A DNA stretch of 64,000 nt from Candidatus Omnitrophota bacterium (GCA_041653115.1 JBAZGA010000001.1:3-64002); one strand, 5' to 3'. Shown: positions 27,638-61,568, counted from the first letter of the stretch. Notes: generated from the sequence alone by a model not told the origin. Made by a program: numbers and translations.

Positions 27638-27640
27638 AAA

Positions 27641-29692: not shown

Positions 29693-29693
29693 T

Positions 29694-30707: not shown

Positions 30708-30716
30708 AGAATATTT

Positions 30717-31436: not shown

Positions 31437-31445
31437 GAGGTAGAA

Positions 31446-32120
31446 ATGACGGTTTTAATAATTGTTGCTCATCCAGACGATGAAATATTGGGTTGTGGGG
31501 GCACCGCGGCATGCCTGGCGAAAAAGGGCCACGAGATTTATACGTTGATATTGGGAGAAGGAATAACTTCAAGATTCAAGAAGAGGTCGGCAAAAAAAGC
31601 AGCGCTTCAGGTTAAGAAAATCAGAGAAATGGCGGTTAGCGCTAATAAGATAATCGGGGTAAAGAAAGTTTTCTTTTCTGGTCTGCCGGATAACAGATTC
31701 GACTCTTGTGATTTGCTTGACATTGTCAGGATAATTGAAAAGAAAAAAGAAGAAGTTCGGCCCGACATTATTTTTACCCATTATGAAAAAGATTTGAATA
31801 TAGACCATCAGATAACCTATAAGGCGGTAATCACCGCCACCAGGCCTACCGAGCACGAGACGGTCAGAGAAATATATGCTTCTGAAGTCCTGTCTTCTAC
31901 TGAATGGAATTTTCCGTTAAGTTTTTCTCCTGATGTCTTTTTTGATATCCAAGGCACGCTTGCTCTGAAACTAAAAGCATTAGGAATATACAAATCGGAA
32001 ATAAGGAGCTTTCCTTATCCGCGCTCCCTGGAGGGAGTGAAATATAATGCTGCGGTTTGGGGAATGAAGACAGGATTAAGATACGCTGAGGCTTTTAAAT
32101 GCGTGCGGGTCATCAAGTGA
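31446..32120 (+). CDS. PIG-L/LmbE family N-acetyl-sugar deacetylase
   Basis: 'LIIVAHPDDEILGCGGTAA' is the AHPDDE metal-binding motif. Confidence 0.65.
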   Translation: MTVLIIVAHPDDEILGCGGTAACLAKKGHEIYTLILGEGITSRFKKRSAKKAALQVKKIREMAVSANKIIGVKKVFFSGLPDNRFDSCDLLDIVRIIEKKKEEVRPDIIFTHYEKDLNIDHQITYKAVITATRPTEHETVREIYASEVLSSTEWNFPLSFSPDVFFDIQGTLALKLKALGIYKSEIRSFPYPRSLEGVKYNAAVWGMKTGLRYAEAFKCVRVIK

Positions 32121-32134
32121 AAGGTTCAAAGCAA

Positions 32135-34254: not shown

Positions 34255-34255
34255 A

Positions 34256-35197
34256 ATGTTAATCAAGAGGCAGGAAATAAACCAGGCGAATTTGTTGCGC
34301 AATCACCTTAATCTATTTTGGCTGCGGCCGGAAAACGCCCTTTGGGAGACTATCGCCTCGATGATTGTCTCAAAGTATGAAATTAAAGCGCCGTCGTTGG
34401 ATTTAGGATGCGGTAACGGTATTATTAGTTTTATTACTGCGGGCGGAAATTTCTCTATAGATTACGATTGGTATATAAACGTGGATACAGAAGGATTCTG
34501 GGAGAATAAAGATATTTACGATGTATGTAAAACCGCCAGCTTGAATGAATATATTACAGAGCGCCCAAAATATAATTTTACTTTTGGTTTGGATCATAAG
34601 CGCAATCTCCTTAAGCAGGCAAGAGCCCTGAATTTCTACGAATCGCTAATTGAGCATGATGCTAAGTTACGGCTTCCTTTTAAAACCGGATCGATAAGAA
34701 CAGTTTTTTCTAATATTATTTATTGGCTTCCGGATTTAAAGCATTCACTTCGTGAAATTAACAGGATTTTAATGAAAGGCGGATCTGCGCTTCTTTGTGT
34801 TCCAAATTCGAAATTTTTTGAATACTGTTATACATATCAATGGAAGAAAAATAAGTCTGAGTTGTTGCGTCTATTAAACAGGGGCAGGGGTGAATCTATG
34901 CGCTGGACGGTTTCCTATAATGAATTTGCTAGTTTAGTAAAATCCTTAGGTTTTAAAATTAATGACCACTTGTATTACCTGTCTCCTTCGATTTTGAAGA
35001 TTTGGGATATCGGGTTTAGGCCGTTTTCGTCGCCGCTTATAAAAATGGCTAATAGTTTGAATCAGCAAGATAGAAGGAATATAAAAAAAGAGTGGATGGA
35101 AACAGCGAAGAAATTTCTTCCATTATTATTGGAAATGGAAAGAAAGAGTAAAAGAGAAGGTGGGTTTCATTTTTTTTATATTGTAAAAGAAAGATAA
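34256..35197 (+). CDS. Class I SAM-dependent methyltransferase
   Basis: 'LDLGCGNGIISF' (motif I) and 'ILMKGGSALLCVPN'. Confidence 0.5.
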   Translation: MLIKRQEINQANLLRNHLNLFWLRPENALWETIASMIVSKYEIKAPSLDLGCGNGIISFITAGGNFSIDYDWYINVDTEGFWENKDIYDVCKTASLNEYITERPKYNFTFGLDHKRNLLKQARALNFYESLIEHDAKLRLPFKTGSIRTVFSNIIYWLPDLKHSLREINRILMKGGSALLCVPNSKFFEYCYTYQWKKNKSELLRLLNRGRGESMRWTVSYNEFASLVKSLGFKINDHLYYLSPSILKIWDIGFRPFSSPLIKMANSLNQQDRRNIKKEWMETAKKFLPLLLEMERKSKREGGFHFFYIVKER

Positions 35198-37156
35198 ATG
35201 CCAAACAAGATTATTGTTTTTGAGAAAATTTCAGATTTTTTCCGGCCTTTCTTAAGATGTTATTCTTTATTTGGATATAAAGTTTATTATTTGAGAGCAT
35301 CGCAAAAAAGCCTATCTAAAAAATGGGTTATAGATTATGAAAATAAAGGTTATATTTCTCGGATTAATCCCGATTGCCAGTTTTCTTACGATAAAGTTTT
35401 TTACCCGGATATGGCTTTTTCTAATATCGAAAATATATACCGGTCAGTCAGCGCCGAATCCGAAGCGATAAAGAGGGTAGTTTATTTATACCAAGATGCC
35501 CATGTTAATTTAGCCTTAAAAAAGAAGCTGATTTTTGAACTTTCAAGATTTTATTTTTTAAATACCCTATTAAATGAATTAGGTAAACAATTAAGTTTTA
35601 AGAGCTTTTATTTTGTACCCGGGGATGGCAACATTTTTAATCCTATAAACAATGATCCCCTTTCCTCTTATAATCAATTATTAAAATTAGTTAAAAAAAA
35701 TAAGCCATCATCTCTAAAAGAGACTAATTGTAGTTTCCCTTTATGGTATGTTTGCTTTAGTTTTATGAGAAATATATGTGAAATATCGGTATTTTACTTA
35801 AAATTATCCGGCTTTCTGATTTTATTAACCTACAGTTATTTATTTAAAAAAAATACTGCTAAAGCAAAATGCAAAAATTATAAATATTTAATCTCGATTA
35901 TGGCCCCACGAAGACAATTTTCTAACCAAGTTCAGAAGGTCGATTTCTTAGTAGATGAAAAATATATACGCAAGGAAGATACGCTTTTCTTTTATGCAAA
36001 GAAACTAAAAGATGAGTATCTCGAATATTGTGAAAGAAACGGCCTAAATTTAATAGATGGTTTTTTTCAACAATTCGATTTTAACAAAGCCGAAATAAGA
36101 AAAGTGTTTAAGGAAGTTTTTAAAACATTATTGAGCAGGCCGATCATGGTTCATTCTGTAAGAGAAGGTGTTTTAGAATCATTTTTATTTTATATCTGGT
36201 GGCAGACATTCGCCGATAAATACGCAGTTAAAAACTTCATAGGTTATCATGATTTTAGTTCCCAGGCTATTTGTAGAAATATAATCCTCAAAAAGAAGAC
36301 GCGGACAAAAACGTGGTTTTATTTAGATTCAGGGAGTTCTGCCGCTTTTTTTAGAACTAAGCAGGAAGATGAGTTATATAGAAGTTTTCATTTTATGTAT
36401 TTATATTTCGATTACTTTCCCTATTGGTCAGAGCCGCTGGTCAGCTATTTTAAAGACCACGATCTGGCGGTAGACAAATATCTTGCTACCGGTTGCCTGT
36501 GGTCAGAACATGTACGATTAATCAGTGAGAAGGTTATAAGGTCCGATCTTCTAGAAAGATTAGAGAGCTTTGGATTCAAAGACGGTCATAAAATTATCGC
36601 TGTTTTTGATTCCAGCTACGATTATGATGTCATTGATTCGTACGAGCACGGAATCGCTTTTATACAAGACATTTTACGTCTCGCCGACGATGTCCCCGAG
36701 GCGTTCATTATATTCAAAGAGAAAAAAGCGAGAAGTTATGTCCGAAAATATTGCCCAGCTCTTGCGCGGCTATATGAAAGTCTCCAGAATCATGCAAGAT
36801 TTTATTTACCGCCGGACGCCGGCAGCACATCCGAGGCCATTGCTTTTAGCGACTTGACAATTTCTTTTCCTTTTACCTCCACTACCGTTGAGGCCCTTGC
36901 TGCCAGGAAGAAAGCGCTATTTTACGATCCTTCTGGCAGGTTAAAAAGCATCTTCTATGATAACATCCCCGATTTAGTCTGCCATGGCTACGATAATCTT
37001 TTGGCAATGACAAAAAGGCTTTTGTTTGAAGCTAAGACGGGAGAATACGATTTGTACCTCGATAGATTTATCAAGGGTAATATAGACCCTTTTCTGGATG
37101 GTAAGGGGATAACTAGGTTTAGAGAGTTTATAAATTATTATAATAATGTTGTCTAG
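35198..37156 (+). CDS. Hypothetical large protein, putative GT-B-like glycosyltransferase (TagF/KpsS-like C-terminus)
   Basis: 652 aa, very AT-rich. C-terminal 'FSDLTISFPFTSTTVEALAARKKALFYDP' matches the D-[LY]-x-I-[ST]-x-x-[ST]-[ST]-x-x-E-A-L pattern of TagF/Capsule_synth-type enzymes and is shared with the ORFs at 6122 and 44476. Confidence 0.3.
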   Translation: MPNKIIVFEKISDFFRPFLRCYSLFGYKVYYLRASQKSLSKKWVIDYENKGYISRINPDCQFSYDKVFYPDMAFSNIENIYRSVSAESEAIKRVVYLYQDAHVNLALKKKLIFELSRFYFLNTLLNELGKQLSFKSFYFVPGDGNIFNPINNDPLSSYNQLLKLVKKNKPSSLKETNCSFPLWYVCFSFMRNICEISVFYLKLSGFLILLTYSYLFKKNTAKAKCKNYKYLISIMAPRRQFSNQVQKVDFLVDEKYIRKEDTLFFYAKKLKDEYLEYCERNGLNLIDGFFQQFDFNKAEIRKVFKEVFKTLLSRPIMVHSVREGVLESFLFYIWWQTFADKYAVKNFIGYHDFSSQAICRNIILKKKTRTKTWFYLDSGSSAAFFRTKQEDELYRSFHFMYLYFDYFPYWSEPLVSYFKDHDLAVDKYLATGCLWSEHVRLISEKVIRSDLLERLESFGFKDGHKIIAVFDSSYDYDVIDSYEHGIAFIQDILRLADDVPEAFIIFKEKKARSYVRKYCPALARLYESLQNHARFYLPPDAGSTSEAIAFSDLTISFPFTSTTVEALAARKKALFYDPSGRLKSIFYDNIPDLVCHGYDNLLAMTKRLLFEAKTGEYDLYLDRFIKGNIDPFLDGKGITRFREFINYYNNVV

Positions 37157-38957
37157 CGCAGAGGATAATAGCTTGAATTCAAAATCTTCTCAAATCCTAT
37201 ATTTTTTGAAACCCTATAAATTATTATATCTGGGTACTGTGTGTCTCAGTCTTTTGGTGGCGGCGTTAGATGCCTTTAATCTCGCCCTTCTTTTACCGGT
37301 GATGAATTACATTTTCGGAATCTTTTCTTCTCCCATTTCATCTTCCAGCCGTCTTTTGCTTTATATCGATAAAATAATTTCTTTGCTGCCATTTCAACAG
37401 AAAATAATTTCCGCCATATCTCTTTTAATATTTTTTACGATAATCAAATGCGCCTTCAGCATCTTAAACGAGTCTTTAATCAGCTACGCAAGCGCAAAGA
37501 TGCTTTATGATACAAGGAAGAACTTGTTGAATAAATATGCGCAAGCTGACTATCAATATTTTCTTGACCATAAACAAGGGGAAATGAACCATAATTTATT
37601 AGTTGCTTCGGGAAAGTTATCTTTTTTATTCATGAAACTGCCCTTACTGTTAGCAGAAATACTTAAAGTATCGGCTATAATAATAATTTTATTTACCATA
37701 AATTTATATGTCACTTTATTTTTTATCCCGTTAGCCATAATTTTTAATTTCTTTATCGGCTTTTTATCTAGGAATGTGTCGCATATAATAGGTATAAAAA
37801 AGACCCAGGCAAGTAATGAACAGGCGGTAATTTTCCATGAGTTTATCAGCGGCGCCAAACAGATCAAAGTATATCTGGCTAAAGACAGGTGGTTGAAGGG
37901 GTTTGATATTCAGAATAAAGAATTTAGCAAGTTATATATGAAAGACTATATCTGGCTTTCGATCCCGCGTAATATATTCGAATTAGTAACCATCTCGATA
38001 CTCTTTGGCCTGGTTTTGTTTATTGATTTGCAGCACACGGCAAATATAACAAAAGAATTGCCTACATTAGGCGTTTTTGCAATGGCCTTATTGAAACTCT
38101 TCCCTTCATCGGCTAATATCGCCAGAATAAAAATGGAGATCATCGGAACCTTGCCAGAACTCCAGGCAACCTATAAAGTGCTCAATATGCGGTCCGAAAG
38201 CATTAAAGCCGGAAGCGCCGAATTTAGAAACCTGAATAAGGGCATTAGTTTCGAAAATGTTTGCTTTACTTATAAAAATAACATTCTTGTCTTAGATAAT
38301 ATTAATATTCAATTTGAGAAGAATAAGGTCACGGCGATTGTGGGTATTTCTGGCTCAGGAAAGACTACTATCGTGAATTTGCTTTTAGGTCTATATCAGC
38401 CTACGCGGGGTAGGATTCTGATTGATGATATGGTAGCATTAAATGAATATAAAGTAGAAAGCTGGTTAAGCAAAATAGGAATAGTTACCCAGGATTCTTT
38501 TATCTTTCATTCAACAGTAGAAGATAATATCATTTTTGGATCAGCAGGGGCGAAAAGAGAGCAGGTTGAAGAGGCGTCCCGCTTAGCAAATGCTCATGAT
38601 TTTATAATGGGCCTGCCGCAGGGTTATAAGACTATTGTGGGAGAAAGAGGAATGAAGCTGTCTGGGGGGCAGCAGCAGCGGATCGCGATCGCCAGGGCAA
38701 TTTTAAGGAATCCCCAGATTCTTATTTTTGATGAAGCAATGAGTAACCTGGACAGCGCTTCCGAAAGGCTGATTCATGAATCTCTGAAGAATATAATTAA
38801 GAATCGTACAATTATTCTAATAGCGCATAGATTAAGTACGATTATCGATGCCGACAAAATTATTATAATTAAGGATGGAGCTATACACGCAGAGGGTCGG
38901 CATGAACAATTACTTCAGAAAGATGCCTTTTACAGGGATTTATATGCCGGAAGATAA
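37146..38957 (+). CDS. ABC exporter, fused permease and ATPase (MsbA/type I exporter-like)
   Basis: An N-terminal 6-TM domain, Walker A 'GISGSGKTTIVNLL', ABC signature 'LSGGQQQRIAIARAIL' and Walker B 'ILIFDEAMSNLD'. Confidence 0.75.
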   Translation: MLSSAEDNSLNSKSSQILYFLKPYKLLYLGTVCLSLLVAALDAFNLALLLPVMNYIFGIFSSPISSSSRLLLYIDKIISLLPFQQKIISAISLLIFFTIIKCAFSILNESLISYASAKMLYDTRKNLLNKYAQADYQYFLDHKQGEMNHNLLVASGKLSFLFMKLPLLLAEILKVSAIIIILFTINLYVTLFFIPLAIIFNFFIGFLSRNVSHIIGIKKTQASNEQAVIFHEFISGAKQIKVYLAKDRWLKGFDIQNKEFSKLYMKDYIWLSIPRNIFELVTISILFGLVLFIDLQHTANITKELPTLGVFAMALLKLFPSSANIARIKMEIIGTLPELQATYKVLNMRSESIKAGSAEFRNLNKGISFENVCFTYKNNILVLDNINIQFEKNKVTAIVGISGSGKTTIVNLLLGLYQPTRGRILIDDMVALNEYKVESWLSKIGIVTQDSFIFHSTVEDNIIFGSAGAKREQVEEASRLANAHDFIMGLPQGYKTIVGERGMKLSGGQQQRIAIARAILRNPQILIFDEAMSNLDSASERLIHESLKNIIKNRTIILIAHRLSTIIDADKIIIIKDGAIHAEGRHEQLLQKDAFYRDLYAGR

Positions 38958-38960
38958 CTG

Positions 38961-39746
38961 ATGAAGGAACTGTTTATAAAAGATAAAGGAAATGTTATTA
39001 AATTTAAATTTTTGAAATGGGATACTGCGTTTTTTGGGGTCAAGTCTTTCCTGTTAGACTTGAAGGCCACCAGAATTAATAAGATCAGGAAAGGTTTTCC
39101 CCGGGCGGCCCTGAAAGCAATCCCGCCATCTTTTATTACCGCAAAGGTTCCTTTAAGTTATCCGCAGAAGTTTATAAATTTTTTATTCGATATAGGATTT
39201 AGATATATAGATACAGAGTTAATACTTGGGTATGTTGACAACAAGGATTTTCCTGACTATTCTCCAACGGGTGTGTCGATCAAGGGGATAAAATTATATA
39301 AAGCTAAAAAAATCCCTAAAGATGCATTCTTGTTGGGCAGAGAATTCAGTTTCACCAGATTTCATCTAGATCCCAACATACCCAGAAGAAAGGCAGAATT
39401 GTTATGGGAGAATTTCATTAGAAATTTTAAGCTATCCGATATGCAGAGCCTATACTGTGCAGAATTTAAAAATGAGACAATCGGGGCAATTTTTGTTAAG
39501 CGATATCTGCAACAAGATAAGCGGATAAGTAACCTGTTTTTGGTTTCCGTTAAAAACAAGTATAGAAATAAAAACATTGGAAGCAGACTGATACAGCATG
39601 CCTTAAAACAACTTGTAGGGTTTAGTGAAAAGATAATCGTAGAAACCCAAGCCAGAAATTTGGGGGCCGTTAATTTTTATATAAAAAATGGTTTTTTAAG
39701 GCTTTATGAAGCGAGGCTAGTCTTACATAGAGGCATTATAAAATAG
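38961..39746 (+). CDS. GNAT-fold N-acetyltransferase-like protein (possible sugar N-acyltransferase, PseH analog)
   Basis: 'LVSVKNKYRNKNIGSRLIQHALKQL' is a GNAT motif A-like stretch, and 'VNFYIKNGF' is a motif B-like stretch. Confidence 0.4.
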   Translation: MKELFIKDKGNVIKFKFLKWDTAFFGVKSFLLDLKATRINKIRKGFPRAALKAIPPSFITAKVPLSYPQKFINFLFDIGFRYIDTELILGYVDNKDFPDYSPTGVSIKGIKLYKAKKIPKDAFLLGREFSFTRFHLDPNIPRRKAELLWENFIRNFKLSDMQSLYCAEFKNETIGAIFVKRYLQQDKRISNLFLVSVKNKYRNKNIGSRLIQHALKQLVGFSEKIIVETQARNLGAVNFYIKNGFLRLYEARLVLHRGIIK

Positions 39747-39768
39747 TCTATTGAATAAGGAGCCATCA

Positions 39769-40500
39769 ATGAAAAAAGATCGTCTGTTTGCAAGGTTAAA
39801 TAAAAAGAGTAAAGCATTTAATTTTGGGAAAGATACCGCAGAAGTTTTTGATGATATGCTTATACGCAGTGTCCCTTTCTATGAAGAGACGCAGAGGATG
39901 ATGGTTGAGATTGCCAAGAGTTTTGCACAACCCAAGAGCAATATCTATGATTTGGGTTGTTCTACCGGCGCCACCTTGTCCGGCTTAGCCAAGTCAATTC
40001 AGGATGAGACTGTTAGAATTGTCGGCGTTGATAATTCACAAGCGATGCTTTCTAAGGCAAGAATAAATTTAAGAAAGAAAGGTTATCTTAACCGCTGCGC
40101 TTTGCAAAAAGGCGATCTAAATGAAAACATTAAATTTAATAACGCGAGTGTAGTTATAATGAATTTAACTTTACAATTTGTAAGGCCTTTGCACCGGGAC
40201 AGCCTGATAACAGATATATATAGAGGCCTTCGAAAGAATGGATGCCTGATTCTCATAGAGAAAGTATTGGGAGAAAACTTAATTTTTAATCAGGCTTTTA
40301 TAAATTTATATTACGATTTTAAAAGAAGGCATGGTTATTCGGAGCTTGAGATTGCTCAAAAGAGAGAAGCCCTGGAAAATGTGTTGATTCCATATAGGAT
40401 CAGGGAAAATCTGTTACTTTTAAACAGGAATGGTTTTAAAGAGACTGATATATTTTTTAAGTGGTATAATTTTTGCGGCCTGCTGGCATTAAAAATATAA
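39769..40500 (+). CDS. cmoA: CmoA-family carboxy-S-adenosyl-L-methionine (Cx-SAM) synthase homolog
   Basis: Strong collinear similarity to CmoA, judged from memory of the E. coli sequence: 'TAEVFDDMLIRSVPFYEE', 'IYDLGCSTGATLSGL', 'VDNSQAMLSKAR', 'ASVVIMNLTLQFVRP', 'YDFKRRHGYSELEIAQKREALENVL' and 'WYNFCGLLALK'. RBS AAGGAG lies 8 nt upstream of ATG 39769. Confidence 0.7.
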   Translation: MKKDRLFARLNKKSKAFNFGKDTAEVFDDMLIRSVPFYEETQRMMVEIAKSFAQPKSNIYDLGCSTGATLSGLAKSIQDETVRIVGVDNSQAMLSKARINLRKKGYLNRCALQKGDLNENIKFNNASVVIMNLTLQFVRPLHRDSLITDIYRGLRKNGCLILIEKVLGENLIFNQAFINLYYDFKRRHGYSELEIAQKREALENVLIPYRIRENLLLLNRNGFKETDIFFKWYNFCGLLALKI

Positions 40501-40506
40501 GGAGCA

Positions 40507-41550
40507 ATGATGGGATTTTCAGAAAAGGATTTAATTAGACGGATAGAGTCGGATATCAAGTTGCAATGTAATACAAAAGATGAGCTGATTCCAGGTAATT
40601 TAGGTAATTCTTGGGAACCGATATTTTTAAAAGAAACCGGAAATTTGATAAATCACGATTTATCAATTAATCTGAACGTTCTTAAGAATTTCAGAAAATC
40701 ATTTGTTTTACTTGTTGATTTCCCGATAGGCAGGCAATATCTAAATATCAGAAATTTACTGGATGGTCAAAGAAGGGGGCAACAAAAAGTTATTAAGAGA
40801 CACTGGCAAATTATAAAAGAGCATAATTATGATTATTTACTGAAGAGGTATCCCTGTTCTTTAGTCGGGAACCCCTATATTTATAGATATAATGGATATT
40901 CCTTTACCTGGCGATGGATTAAGAATGTTTATTATGCAGGGCTCTTTAAAAAAATTTTAGCAGAAAAAATAAGACAGGATTTTATAATTATGGATATTGG
41001 TTGTGGTTACGGGATATTTTCTTATATATTAAAGAATGAGTTTCAAAAAAGTCACCATGTTCTGGTCGACCTTCCTCAGCAGCTTGTTTTAGCACATTAT
41101 TTCTTAGCTAAACATTTCCCCGATGCGAGAATCGCAACTTACAAAGATATTTTTGAGGTAAATAAAATTGACCGTAATTTTTTGAATAAATACGATTTTA
41201 TTTTAATTCCCTGGCATATGTATACTAAAATAGAGCAAGGGAGTATAGATGTCTTGACTAACTTTGTATCTTTCGCCGAGATGGGGAGAAAGTATTTTGA
41301 CTATTATTTAAAACAAGAGCCATTCTTGAGTGTCAAGTACTTTTTTACCATCAATCGCTTTGTTTCTGCCCCGACATATGATAACGGGCTGACCATACTG
41401 GATTATCAGCTCGCTTCTTTCAGGGCGCTGCATTTTGCCATATTTCCTTTGGTTATGGAGAGATATAGAAGAAGCCGCTTTTTTTTCTATAAATACTTTC
41501 CGCACGAATCTCAACTTTTTGAGTTTATCGGAGAAAGACAGAAAATATGA
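40507..41550 (+). CDS. Class I methyltransferase-fold protein with a long N-terminal extension (candidate CmoB-like carboxymethyl/methyl transferase)
   Basis: 'IIMDIGCGYGIFSYIL' is motif I, about 165 aa from the N-terminus, followed by 'LVDLPQQLVLAHYFLAKHFPD'. The layout (a ~120 to 160 aa N-terminal region, then the Rossmann fold) and some aromatic-rich stretches are reminiscent of CmoB. RBS AAGGAG is present upstream, and the gene sits immediately downstream of the cmoA homolog. Confidence 0.4.
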   Translation: MMGFSEKDLIRRIESDIKLQCNTKDELIPGNLGNSWEPIFLKETGNLINHDLSINLNVLKNFRKSFVLLVDFPIGRQYLNIRNLLDGQRRGQQKVIKRHWQIIKEHNYDYLLKRYPCSLVGNPYIYRYNGYSFTWRWIKNVYYAGLFKKILAEKIRQDFIIMDIGCGYGIFSYILKNEFQKSHHVLVDLPQQLVLAHYFLAKHFPDARIATYKDIFEVNKIDRNFLNKYDFILIPWHMYTKIEQGSIDVLTNFVSFAEMGRKYFDYYLKQEPFLSVKYFFTINRFVSAPTYDNGLTILDYQLASFRALHFAIFPLVMERYRRSRFFFYKYFPHESQLFEFIGERQKI

Positions 41551-42482
41551 TACCCCGGAATAATGAATTGCGTTTTGAGATAGCCACTAAATGTAATTAT
41601 CATTGTCTGATCTGCCCCCGTAATAGCATTACTCGTAAACAAGAAATTATGAGCTTAGGTTTATTTAAGAAATTATTGGATAAAATAACCAGTGAGACCT
41701 CTCAATATGATACTTTAACCTTTCCCGGCATGGGTGAGCCATTATTAGACCCTACCATAGAAGACAAGGTTGCTTACGCAAGAAATAAAAAATTCAAAAT
41801 TTTAATTTTGACAAATGGTTCCTTGCTTTCGATTAACAAATTTAATAATTTGGAAGCTCTGGGCGTAGAATCCATAAGAGTAAGTATATATGGCAACGAT
41901 CCCGTAACATACGCAAAGGTGCATGGCCTTAAAAATGGAAAAGTATTCGAAAAGATTAGGTCAAATTTAACCCAGATAGCAAAAATAAAGAAAAAAACCA
42001 AGCTTTTATTAACCTTTAATGTCGTTAATGGGCTGAATGAAGATTGCCTATCTTCCTGGATAGGATACTGGAAAGATAAGGCAGATTTATTAGAGGTGTG
42101 GCGTCCGCATAATTGGGTTAATGGGCGGTCTTACCGGCAGATACAAAACGAGAGACTAAAGACCTGCGGAAGGCCCTGGAATACTCCTTTACAGATTCAG
42201 GTAGACGGTACTGTGAATATGTGCTGTTTTGACTTTAACGGAGAGCTTACTCTTGGGGATTTAAAAAAGCAAAGCCTTAAGGAGGTATTTTCTTCGCCAC
42301 TTTATAAAAAAATCATAAGGCATCATAAGACGGGTGATTTTAAAAATAGTCATTTAATCTGTGAAATGTGCGATCAGAGGAACTCGGATAAAGCAGGGGT
42401 GATGGTATATAGCTCAAATTCTAACATTGATGAACGAATCAGGCAATATTCAACGACGTACATAAATTTTAAAACCCAATAA
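41547..42482 (+). CDS. Radical SAM protein with SPASM-like C-terminal domain
   Basis: 'EIATKCNYHCLICPRNS' (CxxxCxxC) and a C-terminal 'CGRPWNTP...NMCCFDF' auxiliary-cluster-like region. Confidence 0.6.
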   Translation: MIPRNNELRFEIATKCNYHCLICPRNSITRKQEIMSLGLFKKLLDKITSETSQYDTLTFPGMGEPLLDPTIEDKVAYARNKKFKILILTNGSLLSINKFNNLEALGVESIRVSIYGNDPVTYAKVHGLKNGKVFEKIRSNLTQIAKIKKKTKLLLTFNVVNGLNEDCLSSWIGYWKDKADLLEVWRPHNWVNGRSYRQIQNERLKTCGRPWNTPLQIQVDGTVNMCCFDFNGELTLGDLKKQSLKEVFSSPLYKKIIRHHKTGDFKNSHLICEMCDQRNSDKAGVMVYSSNSNIDERIRQYSTTYINFKTQ

Positions 42483-42504
42483 GTATTTATAAGAATTAAA
42501 TAAA

Positions 42505-43647
42505 ATGAATAGAATAATAAAAAAAGCTTTTCCCGAAAACATAAAAGCGCCTTTACGAAAAATAAGAGGCGTATATCGAGGGACTCTCGCTGCATATAAA
42601 AAATACGCAGTTCCAAAATTCTTAATTCATTTTGTCACAACTAGATGTCAGTTAAATTGCAAGCATTGTTTTTGTCCCTCTGAGTCAGACGCTTCCTCAA
42701 AAGATAAGCTTTCTTTGTCAGAACTAAAAAAGGTAATTTTGTCTTTTAATGCCCCCATTGATACGGTCGTTTTAACCGGGGGAGAGCCGTTTTTGCATAA
42801 AGACTTAGTCGAGATGGCGCTATTGTATAATTCACTGAATAAAGCCAGGATCATCTCAATAAATACGAACGGATATGCCACAGATACGATCGTTAATAGC
42901 GTCAATAAAATACTGAATGATTTAGATAATAATTCATGCCTCTCTCTGCAGGTTTCGCTCGATGGCCCTGAGAGGATTCATAATGATATCCGAGGCAATC
43001 CGTATTCATTCCAAAATGCCGCTGAAACAATAAGACGCCTTAAAAAAATACAGGTAGCGAATGATAAAATGCATATTCATACGTTATGTATAATTAATCA
43101 AAAAAATTGCAATTATCTAAAGGAATTGTCCAGCTATTGTATGGAAAATCTTAATATGCCTATCTATTTTGAGCTGGTGAGGAGAAATATCTGTGATTTT
43201 CATTCAGTAGAGTATAAACCAAGGGATGGATTAACCGGCGATTTATCTTTTGATTTAAAACGAGCCTTTAATGATATCGTACATATTTATAATCAGCAGG
43301 ATAAGCGCTTTAAAAGCAAATCCTGTTCAAGCATGATAGGCAAAATAAGGGATGAATTTACTATTGCCCGGGAAGGCAAGAGGTTATTTGCATGCATGGC
43401 GGGCAACTACGCAGGCGCACTCTTCAGCAACGGAGATGTGAGCCCCTGTGAATTATTGGATTTCCGCCTTAACTTAAGAGACTTTGATTATAATTTCCCA
43501 AAGATCTGGAATTCACCCCGGATGCGAGCCGTTGTTGAGAAAATAAGGCGTTCCTGCTTTTGTACCCTTGGCTGTTTTGTCGGTTTATCGCGTCAAAGGA
43601 TTGACTATCAACTGAAAACACTTTTTGCCAAACCGAAATTTTTATAA
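42505..43647 (+). CDS. Radical SAM protein with SPASM-like C-terminal domain
   Basis: 'VTTRCQLNCKHCFC' (CxxxCxxC), and C-terminal 'CMAGNYAGALFSNGDVSPCE' plus 'CFCTLGCFVG'. Confidence 0.6.
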   Translation: MNRIIKKAFPENIKAPLRKIRGVYRGTLAAYKKYAVPKFLIHFVTTRCQLNCKHCFCPSESDASSKDKLSLSELKKVILSFNAPIDTVVLTGGEPFLHKDLVEMALLYNSLNKARIISINTNGYATDTIVNSVNKILNDLDNNSCLSLQVSLDGPERIHNDIRGNPYSFQNAAETIRRLKKIQVANDKMHIHTLCIINQKNCNYLKELSSYCMENLNMPIYFELVRRNICDFHSVEYKPRDGLTGDLSFDLKRAFNDIVHIYNQQDKRFKSKSCSSMIGKIRDEFTIAREGKRLFACMAGNYAGALFSNGDVSPCELLDFRLNLRDFDYNFPKIWNSPRMRAVVEKIRRSCFCTLGCFVGLSRQRIDYQLKTLFAKPKFL

Positions 43648-43648
43648 A

Positions 43649-44623
43649 ATGGTTATTGCTGATAGAGCTATGGCGGTATCTTACGTAATTCCCGTTTTTA
43701 ACCGCTCCCGTTATATAAAAGAAGTTATAGAAGCAATAAACCGGCAGAGCGGCATTAACCGTTCTGAGGTTATCATAATTGACGATGCCTCATCCGATAA
43801 CCCGGAGAAAGAAATAAATCCATTCAAACAGGATAATATCAAAGTTTTTTTTAATCGCCAAAACATGGGTGCTGCTTATTCAAGAAATTTAGGTTTCAGA
43901 ATGTCAAAACATGAATATATCGCTTTTATCGACAGCGATGTAATCCTCCTGCCCGATACAACGGTTAAAATGCTTGAAATTTGTCAGGAATACGACATCG
44001 CGCATGTTGTGCCATTTTGGCCCAACGGCAAACCGATTGTTTCATTAGAAAACAGCAAAGAGTATCCCAGGATATCGGCCTGTTATATGATGAAAAAAGA
44101 AACCCTGCAATATCTGGACAGAATCGGTCAGTTATACGATGAGAATTACGGTATCTACCTTGAAGATATTGATTTTTTCTTCCGTTGCTCTCTTTTCGGC
44201 CTAAAGGCAAAGTGTATCGAAGAGATGAATGCACTCCATATTGCATTCGATTTCACTAAAGACACAAGCTACAGGCATTACCTTTGCTTAAGAAACAATA
44301 TCTATTCCAATATAAAATACCTGCGTATAAAAATACCTGGTAAGCCGGATTTTAAAAATGTCTTTTCATTTAAATCTATAATTTTAAAAATAATAGCGAT
44401 GCTATTTAACTACGATCTTTATAAAAAGTATTCTGCCCAGATATCCGGAAAAAAAAGACATCTTAATAATATTCAATGGATGCGGGATCCATCCCTGAAG
44501 ATTACAAGCAGGCATCTGCTTCTTTTTTTTCTGATTCCAAGGGCTATTTTATGGAATATTTTGAATATACATTCCCCTCTAAAAAAGGGGAAACAGCTTG
44601 CCAAACTGATATGCCAAAAATAA
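43649..44623 (+). CDS. Family 2 glycosyltransferase
   Basis: 'VSYVIPVFNRSRYIKEVIEAINRQSGINRSEVIIIDDASSDN' and 'IDSDV' (DxD). ATG 43649 immediately follows the upstream stop. Confidence 0.65.
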   Translation: MVIADRAMAVSYVIPVFNRSRYIKEVIEAINRQSGINRSEVIIIDDASSDNPEKEINPFKQDNIKVFFNRQNMGAAYSRNLGFRMSKHEYIAFIDSDVILLPDTTVKMLEICQEYDIAHVVPFWPNGKPIVSLENSKEYPRISACYMMKKETLQYLDRIGQLYDENYGIYLEDIDFFFRCSLFGLKAKCIEEMNALHIAFDFTKDTSYRHYLCLRNNIYSNIKYLRIKIPGKPDFKNVFSFKSIILKIIAMLFNYDLYKKYSAQISGKKRHLNNIQWMRDPSLKITSRHLLLFFLIPRAILWNILNIHSPLKKGKQLAKLICQK

Positions 44624-46443
44624 TAATATCCATAAATAATAAGAAGCTGCGCAACTTTCTAAATGGTAATAGGGATAATTTTACCGTTCTCAAGGCAGAT
44701 AGCAAAGATAGCAATACGCAGCAATTTTTATCTGAACATAACACCATAGATATATATGATATACCTCAGGCCAGCCGGGATGATTTTGTGCAGTCCTATT
44801 TATCTTTAATCGAAGAACTTTCTTTAATGAATAATGATAAATACTGGTGGGCTTATTCTACTTCTTCAAAAAACAGGCACATGTCAAAGCTGTTTGATCA
44901 CCTGTATATATTTGTATTAATCACAAATGTTATTGAAAAGGTTAAAGAGAGAAATATTATTATCCTGAATCCTCCCAACAGTATCATCAAGCCCCTGGCA
45001 AGATACCTCGATCATAAAAAGAGAGAAACCAGAATAATCGGCAGAATCGGTTTTCCCGATTATCACGAGGCTTTATTTGTTAATATTAATTTCTTCGTAA
45101 ATACGGCTATCAGGATTTATTATATTACCTTCCGCATAATCTTATCGAAAATTCTGCTTTTACATAAATATAACAGGCTTATTTCAGAAAATAAAAGATG
45201 GTTTGTTTTTAGGAGCTGGTTTAATAATCAATCATTCCCGAAAGGCGGGGCTTACCATGATTCATTCTTTGGAGAATTATGTCAATACTTAAAAGAGAGG
45301 AACAGGCCCGTTTTATTAATTGTAGGTATGTTCGGGGTTAAGTTTAGAAATGCTATTTTTGCAATAGCAAAAATAAAAGATTATAGCGTGTTTCCTGTGG
45401 AGTTTTTTTTAAAATGGTCTGATTTATTAAAAGCCATGATTGACGCTTTGAAATCTAAAGTGGTATTAAAAAGAAGCATTCATTTTAAGAATAATCTTGA
45501 TATTTCGGACATAATCCAATATCACCTAAATATAGATTTCTCAAATACCTTATTTTTGAATATACTTTATTTCTATATTTCTAAAAACCTGGCAAATAAT
45601 ATTTTAATAGAGCGGATTTTCTTAACCTCGGAGAATAATTGCTGGGAGAAGATGTGTATTCAGGCGATAAGAGATTTTTCCCGTTTGACGAAGATAATCG
45701 GCTTTCCGCATGCCATAGTTTCACCGGCTAAGTTAAGCATGATATTGAGTGAATATGAGAAAGAAAAGATGCCATTGCCCGATACGCTGGTCACGAATGG
45801 AGAGATTACCAAAGATTTACTTATTAATACCGGGAAATACGATACCAGTATGATTAAGGCGGGTTGTGCATTAAAGTATAAAAAAATTTTAGACCTCAAA
45901 TTAAAAACAAGAAAAATAAGCAATGAAAGAACTTTCCTTGCGGCATTTGAAGGCGTTAACGAATCCGCAGAATTGATAAATTTTATTTATGATTGCTTTA
46001 AAGAAAGTTCCGCCCATAAAGTAATTATTAGACCGCATCCAGCTTTGCCTATAATAAAAATAAGGCAGTATTTAAGGTTTCACCCAGACAGGTTGCCGAA
46101 AAATTTTTCAATAAGCATAAGTAAAGAAAGAAGCCTGATAGATGATTTGTCAATCGCGGATTTCTTATTATACAATGGTTCTACTGTTTCTATAGAAGCG
46201 CTGGCCATGGGAATACCCGTTATCTATATTGATTTAAAGAAGGCGGTCTGCAGCGATCCACTATTTAGTTGTAATTATCTAAAAAAAATAGCAAGCACCA
46301 AAACAGAGTTACAGTTTGCTATAGATTTTTTTAATACTATGGACTCAGGCGAATTTACCAAACAACAGCGGTTAGCAAATGATTATACCAGAAGATATTT
46401 TTACCCCGTTAATGAAAAAAATTTACAAGTATTTCTACAATAA
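44611..46443 (+). CDS. Hypothetical large protein, putative GT-B-like glycosyltransferase (TagF/KpsS-like C-terminus); start uncertain (44476, 44551 or 44611)
   Basis: C-terminal 'IADFLLYNGSTVSIEALAMGIPVIYIDL' matches the same donor-binding-like pattern seen in the ORFs at 6122 and 35198. No other recognisable family was found by eye. Confidence 0.3.
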   Translation: MPKIIISINNKKLRNFLNGNRDNFTVLKADSKDSNTQQFLSEHNTIDIYDIPQASRDDFVQSYLSLIEELSLMNNDKYWWAYSTSSKNRHMSKLFDHLYIFVLITNVIEKVKERNIIILNPPNSIIKPLARYLDHKKRETRIIGRIGFPDYHEALFVNINFFVNTAIRIYYITFRIILSKILLLHKYNRLISENKRWFVFRSWFNNQSFPKGGAYHDSFFGELCQYLKERNRPVLLIVGMFGVKFRNAIFAIAKIKDYSVFPVEFFLKWSDLLKAMIDALKSKVVLKRSIHFKNNLDISDIIQYHLNIDFSNTLFLNILYFYISKNLANNILIERIFLTSENNCWEKMCIQAIRDFSRLTKIIGFPHAIVSPAKLSMILSEYEKEKMPLPDTLVTNGEITKDLLINTGKYDTSMIKAGCALKYKKILDLKLKTRKISNERTFLAAFEGVNESAELINFIYDCFKESSAHKVIIRPHPALPIIKIRQYLRFHPDRLPKNFSISISKERSLIDDLSIADFLLYNGSTVSIEALAMGIPVIYIDLKKAVCSDPLFSCNYLKKIASTKTELQFAIDFFNTMDSGEFTKQQRLANDYTRRYFYPVNEKNLQVFLQ

Positions 46444-47275
46444 GGAAAATTCTTTAGAAGAAAATAATACCAAAAAAAAGTATAGTTTCTTATGGTCAAG
46501 ATATCAGAATAAAGAAGCGCCGGAGACATACCATTTTAATCATGTCCAGGAAGTTATACCCGATAAAATTGTTAGAGGCAGGTTAGGCATAGATATAGGC
46601 TGCGGCTGCGGCTGGGATACGCATATCATGGCTAAAGATAATCCTGCAGTTCGTATCGTTGGAATAGATATAAGCGAGGGGATTAGCACGGCCTTTAGAT
46701 TAAATAAAAATTTAGAAAATGTAAATATTCTAAAGGCTTCAGCATTACATATTCCATTAGAAGATAAAATATGCGATTTTGCCTATTCTTTTGGGGTCTT
46801 GCATCATTTGCCGGACTACAAGAAAGGTCTTCTGGAAATAAAGAGGGTCCTGAAAAAATCATCCCCCTGTTTCTTATATTTATATGAGGATCATTCTGAA
46901 CGGCCTATTAAGCATATTCTTCTTAAATTAGTGACATCTTTGCGTAAAATAACTATCAGAATCCCCGCGAGAGTCCTTTATATTTTCTCATTATTGCTTT
47001 CCCCCGCGGTGGTATTATTTATTACATATCCTGCGAAGTTTTTTAAAAAATTCAGGTTTACCTACAAGATATATGAAAATACGCCTTTTAATTTTGGAGA
47101 TTCGTTATTTTCTTTATCCGGGGATCTTTATGACAGGTTTTCCGCTCCGATAGAACATAGGTTCAGCAGGGATGAACTCTATAAATTATTTCAGGAGCTC
47201 AATTTTTATGATATCAATATTACCAAACTAAAAGCGACTGCGGGTTGGGTTGTCTGGGGGTATAATAGTGATTAG
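46412..47275 (+). CDS. Class I SAM-dependent methyltransferase
   Basis: 'GIDIGCGCGWDTHIMAK' (motif I) and 'VLKKSSPCFLYLYE'. Confidence 0.55.
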   Translation: MKKIYKYFYNKENSLEENNTKKKYSFLWSRYQNKEAPETYHFNHVQEVIPDKIVRGRLGIDIGCGCGWDTHIMAKDNPAVRIVGIDISEGISTAFRLNKNLENVNILKASALHIPLEDKICDFAYSFGVLHHLPDYKKGLLEIKRVLKKSSPCFLYLYEDHSERPIKHILLKLVTSLRKITIRIPARVLYIFSLLLSPAVVLFITYPAKFFKKFRFTYKIYENTPFNFGDSLFSLSGDLYDRFSAPIEHRFSRDELYKLFQELNFYDINITKLKATAGWVVWGYNSD

Positions 47276-49142
47276 GAATAAAAATATTATTTGCATATCT
47301 TCGATAGACTGGGGCTTTATCTGGCAGGGGCACCAGGAGATAATGTCTAAGCTTGCCAAAAACGGCAATCGCATCTTGTTTATTGAAAATACGGGGGTGA
47401 GGACTCCGGGAGTAAGGGATATCCCCCGCCTGAAAGAAAGAATAAAGAATTATTTCAGGGGCGCCAAAGGCATAAGAAAAGAAATGGAAAATCTTTATAT
47501 ATTCTCTCCTTTGGCGCTGCCGTTTCCATATTCCCGAACCGCCCGTTTTATAAATCGGCATTTAATCATACCTATTTTGGAGCAATGGATAAAAATAATG
47601 GATTTTAATGAGCTGATTATCTGGACTTTTTTGCCCACGCCCTTAAGCATAGATATAATTGATAACCTCCCTAAAAAATTAGTCGTCTATTATTGTATCG
47701 ATGCTTTTAGCGCAAGCTCTGCTTCAGCTAAAAAGATTAAAAAATCGGAGGCAGTATTATTAAAGAAGGCGGATCTGGTATTTGTTACTTCAAAATCTTT
47801 ATATAATTACTGTTCTAAATATAACGATAAAGTTTATATTTTCCCCTTCGCGGTAAATTTTGAAGATTTTGAAAAAGTCAGGTTAAATGAAGCTGATTCT
47901 GCCAGGGAAGAGCTCTCCGGCATCAGACGCCCTATCATCGGCTATATCGGCGGAATACATAAATGGCTGGATTTTAACTTAATTGCAAAAGCAACCCAGA
48001 GATATCCGGATTATTCATTTGTATTTATCGGGCCTATCCAGGCAGACATATCTTCTTTGCAAGGGATAAAGAATATTTATTTTTTGGGCAAAAAAGAACA
48101 CCATCAAATTCCCCAATTTATAAAGAATTTTGACGCATGCATTATACCGTATCTTCTTACCGATTACACTCAAAACGTTTATCCAACTAAATTAAACGAA
48201 TATCTGGCGATGGGAAAACCCGTGATATCCACCGATCTGCCTGAGGTCGCCGATTTTAATAAAGACAATAATAATGTGGTCTTCTTGGGTAAGACGGATC
48301 AAGATTTTATGGATTATATCGGCAGAGCCGTTAATGATGCCTGCGCTGCCTCGCTGGAAAAACGTATAGCTGCTGCGCAAAAAAATAGCTGGACTATAAG
48401 AGTTAAAGAGATGAATAGTCTTATAAAAAGAGCGGCTGAGCAAAAGCTTAATCTGCCGTTTGACTGGAGAGAGAGTTTTTTAAGGCAGTATAGAATTGTA
48501 CGCAGAAAGTTTTTTAAAATAGCTTTTACTTTTTTAGCCGCGTATTTTTTGGTATTTTATACGCCCTTGGTTTGGTTTCTGGCGGAGCCGCTTAAAATAA
48601 CGCAACAGCCTGAAAAATCGGACTCGATCGTTGTCTTTGCGGGTGGAGTAGGCGAGTCAGGAAAGGCTGGACAGGGTTATGAAGAGAGGGTAAAATATGC
48701 GGTAGAGCTCTATAAAAAAGGTTACGCTAATTATTTAATTTTTTCTTCGGGGTATGTTTATGCTTTTAAAGAACCGTTAGTAATGCAGGCTTTAGCCGTA
48801 TCCTTAGGCGTGCCGGAAGAGGCAATTGTTTTAGAGGATAGGGCAAAAAATACCTATGAAAATGTAAGTTTTTCCAAAGAAATTTTAGAGAAAAATGCCT
48901 GGAATAAAATCCTTGTGGTCAGTTCGCCTTATCATATGCGCCGCGTAGCTTTAGTTTTTAATAAAATCGCCAATAATATAAAAGTAATCTATGTCCCAAT
49001 CCCGAATAGTTTATTCTATTCTCATCCCAAAAAAGATATTTCTGGCAAAGGGATTTGGAAGAAAATAAATATCCGGCAGATTAAAGGTATTTTCCACGAA
49101 TATCTGGGAATCTTGTATTATTGGCGTAAAGGATGGTTATAG
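47250..49142 (+). CDS. Fusion of a GT4-type (GT-B) glycosyltransferase (N-terminal ~400 aa) and a DUF218/YdcF-ElyC-like C-terminal domain
   Basis: GT4 C-terminal motif 'YPTKLNEYLAMGKPVISTDLPEV'. After a TM segment ('IAFTFLAAYFLVFYTPLVWFLA'), the DUF218-like region has 'DSIVVFAGGVGESG...YLIFSSGYVY...EDRAKNTYENV'. Confidence 0.5.
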   Translation: MSGGIIVIRNKNIICISSIDWGFIWQGHQEIMSKLAKNGNRILFIENTGVRTPGVRDIPRLKERIKNYFRGAKGIRKEMENLYIFSPLALPFPYSRTARFINRHLIIPILEQWIKIMDFNELIIWTFLPTPLSIDIIDNLPKKLVVYYCIDAFSASSASAKKIKKSEAVLLKKADLVFVTSKSLYNYCSKYNDKVYIFPFAVNFEDFEKVRLNEADSAREELSGIRRPIIGYIGGIHKWLDFNLIAKATQRYPDYSFVFIGPIQADISSLQGIKNIYFLGKKEHHQIPQFIKNFDACIIPYLLTDYTQNVYPTKLNEYLAMGKPVISTDLPEVADFNKDNNNVVFLGKTDQDFMDYIGRAVNDACAASLEKRIAAAQKNSWTIRVKEMNSLIKRAAEQKLNLPFDWRESFLRQYRIVRRKFFKIAFTFLAAYFLVFYTPLVWFLAEPLKITQQPEKSDSIVVFAGGVGESGKAGQGYEERVKYAVELYKKGYANYLIFSSGYVYAFKEPLVMQALAVSLGVPEEAIVLEDRAKNTYENVSFSKEILEKNAWNKILVVSSPYHMRRVALVFNKIANNIKVIYVPIPNSLFYSHPKKDISGKGIWKKINIRQIKGIFHEYLGILYYWRKGWL

Positions 49143-58869: not shown

Positions 58870-58888
58870 AGGACAAAAGGAGGCAGGA

Positions 58889-59263: not shown

Positions 59264-59277
59264 GGCTGCCAAATAAT

Positions 59278-61534: not shown

Positions 61535-61568
61535 GCTCCATAACTTAAGGCCTCACTTAAATTACTGC

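Follow-up and report, generated by a model that had tools for sequence, protein, structure and literature searches.

Two unrelated radical SAM enzymes of predicted twitch type, with a probable sugar-tailoring role, in a cell-surface glycan operon of Candidatus Omnitrophota

Introduction

What are adjacent radical S-adenosylmethionine (SAM) enzymes doing in a gene cluster for a cell-surface glycan? The question is raised by a 64,000-nucleotide stretch of DNA from a Candidatus Omnitrophota bacterium (GCA_041653115.1, JBAZGA010000001.1:3-64002), the whole of which is referred to here as the window. It contains two neighbouring radical SAM genes, rSAM1 (41547-42482, + strand, encoding 311 amino acids) and rSAM2 (42505-43647, + strand, encoding 380 amino acids), together with a third, rSAM3, further upstream (33205-34254, + strand). 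A first-pass annotation had read the three as copies of a SPASM-type radical SAM enzyme in a sugar operon, acting on the sugar (by epimerisation, C-methylation, dehydration or cyclisation) or on a glycoprotein. The two open reading frames (ORFs) spanning 41547-43647 are indeed intact and lie on the strand that had been given, and the motifs quoted for the three proteins (CNYHCLIC, CQLNCKHC and CNMKCPMC) are all present.

The evidence set out below makes it very probable that rSAM1 and rSAM2 are glycan-tailoring enzymes of the twitch type. To our knowledge, the sugar-acting twitch radical SAM enzymes described so far all come from a few antibiotic pathways. As a kind of enzyme they are already known; what is new is their use in surface-glycan and ulosonic-acid operons, their conservation across domains of life, their association with a dedicated partner, here called the T family, and their fusion to family 2 glycosyltransferases (GT2).

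Radical SAM families and their auxiliary clusters

The assignment of rSAM1 as a BtrN-like twitch enzyme is drawn from its ORF, its Pfam matches, a family alignment and its similarity to BtrN. The protein scores 44.5 bits against Radical_SAM (PF04055) and 47.2 bits against SPASM, whose gathering thresholds are 29.5 and 21.5 bits, respectively. In an alignment of 32 sequences from public metagenomes (A1, mean column identity 71%), both the CxxxCxxC motif (CNYHCLIC, C16/C20/C23) and the GGE-type SAM-binding motif (G61-x-G63-E64) are invariant, and the only other invariant cysteines are C207, C226, C227, C272 and C275. The divergent, twitch-like rSAM2 was characterised in the same manner from its ORF, Pfam matches and an alignment of 35 sequences (A2), which are 23-38% identical to the query except for one 87% relative. 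Here Radical_SAM reaches 74.6 bits and Fer4_12 36.5 bits, with SPASM barely over its cut-off at 21.6 bits, and again the CxxxCxxC motif (CQLNCKHC, C48/C52/C55) and its GGE-type counterpart (G92-G93-E94-P95) are invariant. Because these motifs are invariant, both enzymes are predicted to be catalytically intact.

The C-terminal regions were compared with the full seven-cysteine SPASM motif (PF13186/TIGR04085), CX9-15GX4C-gap-CX2CX5CX3C-gap-C, which was found in none of rSAM1, rSAM2 and rSAM3; the central CX2CX5CX3C block is absent from all three. Conserved C-terminal cysteines number five in rSAM1, five in rSAM2 and four in rSAM3, enough for one auxiliary cluster, and the three proteins are thus assigned on their cysteine patterns to the twitch type. 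In rSAM2 the conserved C-terminal residues are C297, G310, C315, C351, C353 and the near-invariant C357, giving the pattern CX12GX4C ... CXCX3C. For rSAM3, which matches Radical_SAM at 60.5 bits and SPASM at 46.2 bits, an alignment of 25 sequences has C64/C68/C71 of the CNMKCPMC motif, C251, C269, C314 and C317 as its invariant cysteines. The arrangement seen in BtrN, a pair of cysteines flanking a hairpin and a CxxC after the following helix, is found in rSAM1 and rSAM3; rSAM2, counted by cysteines, has the spacing CX17C...CXCX3C, and its placement in the BtrN type is tentative. The SPASM label of the first-pass annotation therefore holds for the cysteine-rich, auxiliary-cluster C-termini and for the Pfam SPASM matches, and fails for the full motif; as to spacing, none of the three proteins has that of a full SPASM domain, and rSAM1 and rSAM3 have that of twitch domains.

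BtrN is the best sequence match in the PDB to both rSAM1 (phmmer E 8.6e-10) and rSAM3 (E 1.1e-6), and in both cases the core and the C-terminal domain are aligned. C207, C226, C272 and C275 of rSAM1 pair one-to-one with BtrN cysteines at alignment positions 169, 187, 232 and 235, and four cysteines of rSAM3 do likewise. In the published structure of BtrN, these four cysteines ligate the single auxiliary [4Fe-4S] cluster. An AlphaFold2 model of rSAM1 (predicted local distance difference test score, pLDDT, 84.4) has a hairpin (E215-217, E222-224) followed by helices, and a Foldseek search with it returned BtrN (4m7t) first, with a template modelling (TM) score of 0.72 normalised to the target, and then the anaerobic sulfatase-maturating enzyme (anSME), BlsE and DesII. 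The rSAM2 model (pLDDT 83.7) gave generic matches: SuiB, SkfB, BlsE, CteB, DesII and MoaA.

Profile comparison with hhalign aligned the rSAM1 and rSAM3 families at 99.8% over 264 columns, with the twitch domain included. On this comparison rSAM1 and rSAM3, the second BtrN-like twitch enzyme identified by Pfam, alignment, BtrN match and hhalign, are judged to be sister families, and rSAM2 to stand apart. The idea of three copies gives way to three different families. A tandem duplication giving rise to rSAM1 and rSAM2 was considered and rejected, as the two align over 115 N-terminal residues by BLASTP and over the radical SAM core only by hhalign (172 columns).

None of the three proteins reaches the curated cut-off of any NCBIfam model; the model for N-terminal twitch domain radical SAM proteins, NF033640, has a cut-off of 170 bits and scores 34.4 bits with rSAM1 and 81 bits with rSAM3, so that both fail. 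The families are large. More than 600 homologues of rSAM1 were found, and those listed are 60-69% identical and 303-327 amino acids long, with two closer sequences at 77% and 94%; homologues of rSAM3 number more than 350. A word-indexed search with rSAM2 gave two close relatives, with the rest at 38% identity or less and belonging to DPANN archaea and Omnitrophota, and an exhaustive phmmer search returned 238 representative clusters at E<=1e-30, none of them between 87% and 37% identity. The rarity of such enzymes in carbohydrate pathways, as first claimed, is thus borne out among characterised enzymes and not among homologues, which are common.

A sugar rather than a peptide setting

Could these enzymes be maturases of ribosomally synthesised and post-translationally modified peptides (RiPPs)? 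This would fit their Pfam SPASM annotation and sub-threshold NCBIfam matches to WgkB, AlbA and MftC, and would require a precursor peptide gene that had been overlooked. No such gene was found: from 430 to 57633 the + strand has no gap above 40 nt, and each small ORF in the 39.7-46.5 kb region lies inside a larger one. Neither was a peptide cassette found in about 45 homologous loci; among these, L048 alone has a small neighbouring ORF, whose product is a cysteine-free protein of 45 amino acids with a ribbon-helix-helix look. Pfam detected no PqqD domain, or RiPP recognition element (RRE; PF05402), in the radical SAM enzymes. Their N-terminal extensions before the CxxxCxxC motif are 15 residues in rSAM1, 47 in rSAM2 (modelled as a low-confidence helix) and 63 in rSAM3, and a motif that begins as early as residue 16 (rSAM1) or 48 (rSAM2) leaves no space for an RRE domain in either of these two. 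Since neither an RRE domain nor intergenic space nor a free-standing small ORF is present, the peptide-maturase reading was rejected, and a RiPP function is effectively refuted.

A related suggestion is that one or both enzymes are anSME-type maturases acting on a neighbouring enzyme, for instance the T-family protein, or on the glycoprotein to which the glycan is attached. In the structural search with rSAM1, anSME ranks second, the peptide maturases SkfB, SuiB and CteB head the rSAM2 match list, and the tight pairing of rSAM1 with the T family, described below, would suit an enzyme and its protein substrate. Such a role is nevertheless highly improbable. Five conserved C-terminal cysteines are too few for an anSME, whose two auxiliary clusters need seven or eight; neither a sulfatase nor any other known maturase target is among the annotated genes of the window; an RRE domain is lacking; and the structural matches to peptide maturases cover the generic core, at TM scores of 0.5-0.6. 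By sequence and fold, the solved enzymes nearest to rSAM1 and rSAM3 (BtrN, BlsE and DesII) act on sugars and the loci are glycan clusters, in agreement with the sugar setting proposed by the first-pass annotation. The refuting condition named in that annotation, a precursor peptide gene missed nearby, does not hold.

The rSAM1 family and its partners

The rSAM1 family was surveyed with one genome per species, which gave 39 loci, 38 of them distinct and 37 remaining once a sister contig of the window (L005) was excluded; ORFs were called in all loci and clustered, and profiles were built. Most orthologues are 54-67% identical and a few outliers 37-42%. The bacterial loci come from Omnitrophota (the phylum of the window), Nitrospirota, the anammox bacteria Brocadia and Scalindua and other Planctomycetota, Ignavibacteriae, Flavobacteria, Alphaproteobacteria and Pseudomonadales, and the archaeal loci from Thermoplasmatota and the cultured methanogen Methanolobus vulcani. 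That identity between domains is as high as within a phylum points to the horizontal spread of a constrained enzyme. All examined loci with orthologues of rSAM1 or rSAM3 are glycan gene clusters; across all three families, each homologue context examined is either a glycan cluster or a GT2 pairing, with the exception of L046.

Within four genes of rSAM1 (n=37), the most frequent neighbours are a B12 radical SAM gene (14 loci), a GT2 cluster (12), a NanM-like methyltransferase (10), another twitch or SPASM radical SAM gene (10) and KdsD (6). The methyltransferase lies within three genes of rSAM1 in 11 of the 38 distinct loci and directly precedes it in seven. Three loci from Brocadia and a Flavobacteria metagenome-assembled genome (L010 at 8215-20264, L015 and L038) have stretches of about 10 kb that are extremely rich in radical SAM genes, in which two to three twitch-type and two to three B12-binding genes (three of each in L010) occur among GT2 and methyltransferase genes.

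The T family consists of proteins of 470-650 amino acids, in which three clusters (4, 17 and 19) were united by reciprocal profile hits. A member is encoded within five genes of rSAM1 in 31 of the 38 distinct loci and directly 3' of it in 14; when L005 is excluded the latter figure is 13 of 37, with a binomial P of 5e-7 against a T-family density within loci of 6.8%. In the window the TIGR04326-like T protein, annotated as surface carbohydrate biosynthesis, occupies 44476-46443 on the + strand and likely starts at 44614, giving 609 amino acids. It has no Pfam match, and its NCBIfam scores are below cut-off: 43.2 bits for TIGR04326, 27.4 for TIGR04396 and 22.7 for BFO_1060_trans. Among 28 members of the family, 20 match TIGR04326, eight TIGR04396 and six the BFO_1060 glycosyltransferase model. 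The residues E340, H366 and H475-P476 are invariant, the last pair forming an HP motif (RxHP in the window), and the C-terminal half reads by eye as a GT-B fold, which Pfam and a PDB search did not detect. BFO_1060 represents a homologue of Tannerella forsythia transferases for pseudaminic acid (Pse) and legionaminic acid (Leg) derivatives, which have D/E-D/E-G and HP motifs (PMC5420450), and KpsC, a transferase of 3-deoxy-D-manno-oct-2-ulosonic acid (Kdo), accounts for four of nine sub-threshold PDB hits to the T-family profile. On these motifs the T family is regarded as a putative (CMP-)ulosonic-acid transferase family.

The position after the T gene in other rSAM1 loci is taken by five-cysteine twitch enzymes that are not orthologous to rSAM2, with a GT2 gene next. 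Orthology of this second radical SAM enzyme across five loci (L004, L016, L025, L026 and L027) was considered and rejected, the proteins being only 24-29% identical to rSAM2 and having the spacing CX18C...CX2CXC. The recurrent theme is a twitch radical SAM gene adjoining a GT2 gene, and the particular tandem of the window does not recur.

Coupling of rSAM2 to a glycosyltransferase

Downstream of rSAM2 is a GT2 gene, its putative partner (43625-44623, + strand; Glycos_transf_2, 90.2 bits), the true start of which is likely the ATG at 43649, as called in L005, giving 324 amino acids; the gene adjoins the stop codon of rSAM2 or overlaps it. Among the best 150 rSAM2 hits, 17 are long proteins of 629-735 amino acids. 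By Pfam, 14 of them have an N-terminal GT2 and a C-terminal radical SAM domain, one has the reverse order, and two are fusions of LPG_synthase_TM, a membrane domain, with a radical SAM domain. The GT2 fusions are P0363, P0369, P0383, P0412, P0419, P0420, P0434, P0438, P0452, P0453, P0463, P0469, P0471, P0483 and P0493, and the membrane-domain fusions P0433 and P0474; one fused gene adjoins a glycan cluster. Where the rSAM2 homologue is not fused, an adjacent and often overlapping GT2 gene is found in the window, in L005, in a glycan cluster (L006) and in isolated two-gene units of an Omnitrophota (L047) and a Woesearchaeota (DPANN; L048) genome. Fusion and adjacency together are Rosetta-stone evidence that the rSAM2 family works with a GT2, and functional coupling of the two is considered probable.

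The same fusions, in both domain orders and with LPG_synthase_TM, could be read in another way, in which the GT2 glycosylates a lipid or polyprenyl acceptor and rSAM2 then performs a radical ring contraction or rearrangement, as with HpnI/HpnK/HpnJ in the formation of the hopanoid cyclitol ether, or with calditol synthase (Cds). The isolated GT2 and radical SAM modules of the Omnitrophota and Woesearchaeota loci would suit such a scheme, and glycosyl transfer followed by a radical SAM ring contraction has a precedent (PMC13459092). HpnJ, however, is a B12-binding radical SAM enzyme with a different architecture, and the cell-surface glycan operon of the window encodes an initiating transferase of the WecA type together with an ABC exporter. 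This alternative is regarded as improbable, and rSAM2 is better seen as a putative editing enzyme for the sugar handled by its GT2 partner.

Ulosonic acids and the proposed reactions

Which sugar might rSAM1 act upon? Biosynthetic genes for Kdo provide one indication. In Methanolobus vulcani (L036, 6806-10936) the gene order is KdsB, KdsA, KdsD, KdsC, the rSAM1 orthologue at 10001-10936 and a GT2; all four Kds proteins are above NCBIfam cut-offs, and the start of rSAM1 overlaps the stop of KdsC by 4 nt. A Thermoplasmatota locus (L022) has the complete KdsB/A/D/C set beside its rSAM1 orthologue, and a further archaeal locus (L028) has KdsB/A/D. L036 and L028 additionally hold a T-family gene. 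Archaea have no lipopolysaccharide, and the presence of these pathways suggests that archaeal surface glycans contain a Kdo-type sugar. In four bacterial loci a KdsD/KpsF paralogue is found within two genes of rSAM1, and a NeuB, Kds or CTP_transf_3 gene lies within 10 kb of rSAM1 in 17 of 37 loci.

The sister family provides a second indication. rSAM3 lies directly 3' of a NeuB/PseI-type nonulosonic acid synthase (32099-33199, + strand; Pfam NeuB 301.7 bits plus a SAF domain), as the first-pass annotation had observed, and in all loci examined (L049, L050, L051 and L001, including ones from Alcanivorax and Desulfobacterales) its homologues fall inside NeuB/CTP_transf_3/WbqC/PIG-L clusters. The window itself carries two sets of nonulosonic-acid genes. 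The first (2504-5169) has a short NeuB of 265 amino acids without a SAF domain, a UDP-GlcNAc 2-epimerase and a cytidylyltransferase; the second, of the Pse type (24629-33199), comprises PseB/PseC-like proteins, an aldo-keto reductase, a PseG-like protein, WbqC, PIG-L and the NeuB with SAF domain, and includes a fusion of 683 amino acids (27641-29692) between a CTP_transf_3 cytidylyltransferase (residues 5-172) and a class-III aminotransferase (292-584).

Taken together, the Kds and NeuB context and the rSAM3 clusters make an ulosonic acid the best guess for the substrate of rSAM1. The estimate is held somewhat short of an even chance because such genes are missing from the vicinity of rSAM1 in about half of the loci.

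From these contexts and the likeness to BtrN, SpeY and HygY, we infer the following scheme. rSAM1 and rSAM2 would each modify sugars that belong to a lipid-linked glycan of the cell surface, rather than acting on peptides. Cleavage of SAM by rSAM1 would generate a 5'-deoxyadenosyl radical that takes a hydrogen from a carbinol C-H of the sugar, after which one of two routes may be followed: an electron could pass to the auxiliary cluster, leaving a keto sugar (dehydrogenation), or a hydrogen could be supplied from a cysteine on the opposite face, giving the epimer. In HygY a cysteine hydrogen donor reportedly switches the outcome from that of a dehydrogenase to that of an epimerase, and the additional invariant cysteine of rSAM1 may have a similar function; C227, adjoining the ligand C226, is the candidate donor. 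The sugar would most likely be an ulosonic acid, of the Kdo or nonulosonic type, that is either CMP-activated or newly transferred. The product may then be O-methylated or O-carboxymethylated by the NanM-like enzyme encoded next to rSAM1, possibly with carboxy-SAM from the adjacent CmoA homologue, and be installed by the putative T-family transferase (44614-46443), whilst rSAM2 would modify the sugar used by the downstream GT2. By analogy, methylation is less to be expected of a BtrN-like architecture than dehydrogenation or epimerisation; as a statement about rSAM1 itself, this chemistry is put forward tentatively, at less confidence than the ulosonic substrate.

Several observations weigh against this explanation. 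The identity of rSAM1 with BtrN is only about 20% and the protein maturase anSME comes second among its structural matches; given this identity and the surface glycan context, rSAM1 is not taken to be a BtrN orthologue, such enzymes belonging to aminoglycoside pathways. Neither the rSAM1 nor the rSAM2 family has a characterised member or reaches an NCBIfam model, and on sequence a dehydrogenase would not be separable from an epimerase. As many as 20 of the 37 rSAM1 loci lack NeuB, Kds and CTP_transf_3 genes within 10 kb, which makes the ulosonic link a partial one. All matches of the T family to TIGR04326, TIGR04396 and BFO_1060 fall under the respective cut-offs, and a PDB search with the T profile gave nothing significant, KpsC appearing at E 0.7-2.1 over the HP region. 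The place of the second radical SAM gene is held elsewhere by non-orthologous twitch enzymes, so that the tandem itself is not conserved. The rSAM2 homologue in L046 has no GT2 neighbour, and the similarity between the window's GT2 and the fused GT2 domains is limited to about 90 N-terminal residues and does not exceed that shown by another GT2 of the window; together with the mutual divergence of the partner GT2s, this leaves orthology of the GT2 partner unsupported.

Some of these points would suit a different substrate, such as a nucleotide hexose or 6-deoxyhexose or a residue of the growing glycan, with the T protein being a generic glycosyltransferase or a polymer-modifying protein. The loci without ulosonic-acid genes and the weak or non-significant matches of the T family to nonulosonic-acid and Kdo transferase models speak for it, as do the substrates of the characterised relatives BtrN, DesII and BlsE, which are aminocyclitols, TDP-sugars or nucleoside sugars. 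On the other side are the Kdo pathways that flank the orthologue in archaea, where the genes even overlap in L036, the KdsD genes close to rSAM1 in four bacterial loci and the residence of the sister family rSAM3 inside nonulosonic-acid clusters. Moreover, a radius of 10 kb undercounts, because many loci are incomplete and clusters can exceed 60 kb. An ordinary hexose is on balance rather unlikely, and an ulosonic acid is preferred. The explanation as a whole, two unrelated glycan-tailoring twitch enzymes with the roles proposed, is judged to have a somewhat better than even chance of being right.

A broader and more speculative picture, which is considered unlikely to hold in full, would join the three families. 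In it, rSAM1 and rSAM3 would provide an oxygen-independent radical route to new Kdo and nonulosonic derivatives, namely keto, epimeric or rearranged ulosonic acids, which bacteria and archaea would share by horizontal transfer and which the T family would install. rSAM2 and its GT2 would form a glycosylation-coupled radical sugar-editing module, found elsewhere as one fused polypeptide and having no characterised precedent.

The three families are large and uncharacterised, and they occur in the surface glycan operons of mostly anaerobic and mostly uncultivated bacteria and archaea. If the proposal is true, it would account for the diversification of ulosonic acids and other surface sugars by anaerobes with no need of oxygen-dependent enzymes, and it would give a function to families annotated as surface carbohydrate biosynthesis (TIGR04326, NanM-like methyltransferases). 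Methanolobus vulcani, which is culturable and bears the module, offers an experimental entry point.

The surrounding operon

The window has 58 ORFs longer than 150 amino acids, almost all on the + strand. From 430 to 57633, about 57 kb of genes run on this one strand with frequent overlaps of start and stop codons, and the whole looks like a single unusually long operon. The G+C content is 0.33-0.38 at 34000-48000, where radical SAM genes lie, as against 0.46-0.47 at 58000-64000, a contrast consistent with a horizontally exchanged, variable glycan module.

The genes around rSAM1 and rSAM2 are those originally named, with the GT2 downstream and two genes upstream that are confirmed by profile. 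The first encodes a homologue of the CmoA-type carboxy-SAM synthase (39751-40500, + strand; TIGR00740 equivalog, 247.8 bits against a cut-off of 193.3), and the second a NanM-like putative sugar O-methyltransferase (40507-41550, + strand; TIGR04371, 120.9 bits against a cut-off of 44), which is directly 5' of rSAM1 and overlaps it by 4 nt. The pair (39751-41550) also occurs in two Omnitrophota loci (L005 at 6066-7847 and L026 at 7268-9050), and the target of carboxymethylation may be a sugar rather than tRNA.

The B12-binding radical SAM enzyme reported earlier at 9647 (9647-10969, + strand) is confirmed by Pfam (B12-binding 61.1 bits, Radical_SAM 61.5 bits) and matches no NCBIfam family above cut-off. 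An NDP-hexose C-methyltransferase-type protein with Methyltransf_13, Methyltransf_23 and Methyltransf_14 domains is encoded at 14112-15374, so that the operon probably makes C-methyl branched sugars in a conventional way. A "PFTS motif" polysaccharide biosynthesis protein (35198-37156; TIGR04417, 156.6 bits against a cut-off of 100) recurs alongside rSAM1 and the T family in L005, L008, L017, L023, L025, L026 and L036. Four ORFs, of 564 (6122-7816), 347 (8588-9631), 508 (12576-14102) and 455 amino acids (17320-18687), have no Pfam match at E<=1e-5.

Comparison with known systems

No characterised homologue of the radical SAM families was found in NCBIfam, the PDB or the searchable literature, and the literature gave none that links radical SAM enzymes with nonulosonic acids, Kdo, capsules or polysaccharide gene clusters. 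A paper on the Kuenenia S-layer glycan reports methylated sugars and leaves radical SAM genes unmentioned.

The T family resembles BFO_1060/Tanf_01245 of Tannerella forsythia and the KpsC-type Kdo transferases in its HP motif and, by eye, in a GT-B-like C-terminal domain. It differs from them in an extra N-terminal half of about 300 amino acids with a WWA..S.KN motif, and its best match is the function-unknown model TIGR04326, all comparator scores being below cut-off or non-significant.

The pairing of rSAM2 with a GT2 is like HpnI/HpnJ and Cds in coupling glycosyl transfer, putatively, to a radical SAM sugar rearrangement. Whereas HpnJ carries a B12-binding domain, none is detected by Pfam in rSAM1 or rSAM2, and the setting in the window is a polysaccharide operon. 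With the SPASM maturases (anSME, PqqE, MftC, CteB, SkfB and SuiB) the enzymes have in common the PF13186 match and a similar overall fold, and a SPASM-like first half-motif, CX9-15GX4C, is clearest in rSAM2 (C297-X12-G310-X4-C315). Unlike those maturases, rSAM1 and rSAM2 lack the second-cluster cysteine block and an RRE domain, and neither a peptide gene nor a sulfatase accompanies them.

SpeY (a dehydrogenase), HygY (an epimerase), DesII, BlsE and AbmM likewise use radical SAM chemistry to activate C-H bonds of sugars; DesII, BlsE, AbmM and SpeY are among the structural or sequence matches, with weak E-values of 1e-4 to 1e-2. These characterised cases belong to secondary-metabolite pathways, in contrast to surface glycan operons. 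The closest comparison is with BtrN, the 2-deoxy-scyllo-inosamine dehydrogenase of the butirosin pathway (PDB 4m7t/4m7s), which acts on a carbohydrate-like substrate and, like rSAM1 and rSAM3, has a compact radical SAM core followed by a twitch domain of beta-hairpin and helix. rSAM1 departs from BtrN in being about 60 residues longer, in its additional invariant cysteine C227 and in a conserved C-terminal tail, and it is found with a T-family transferase in surface glycan operons rather than in aminoglycoside clusters.

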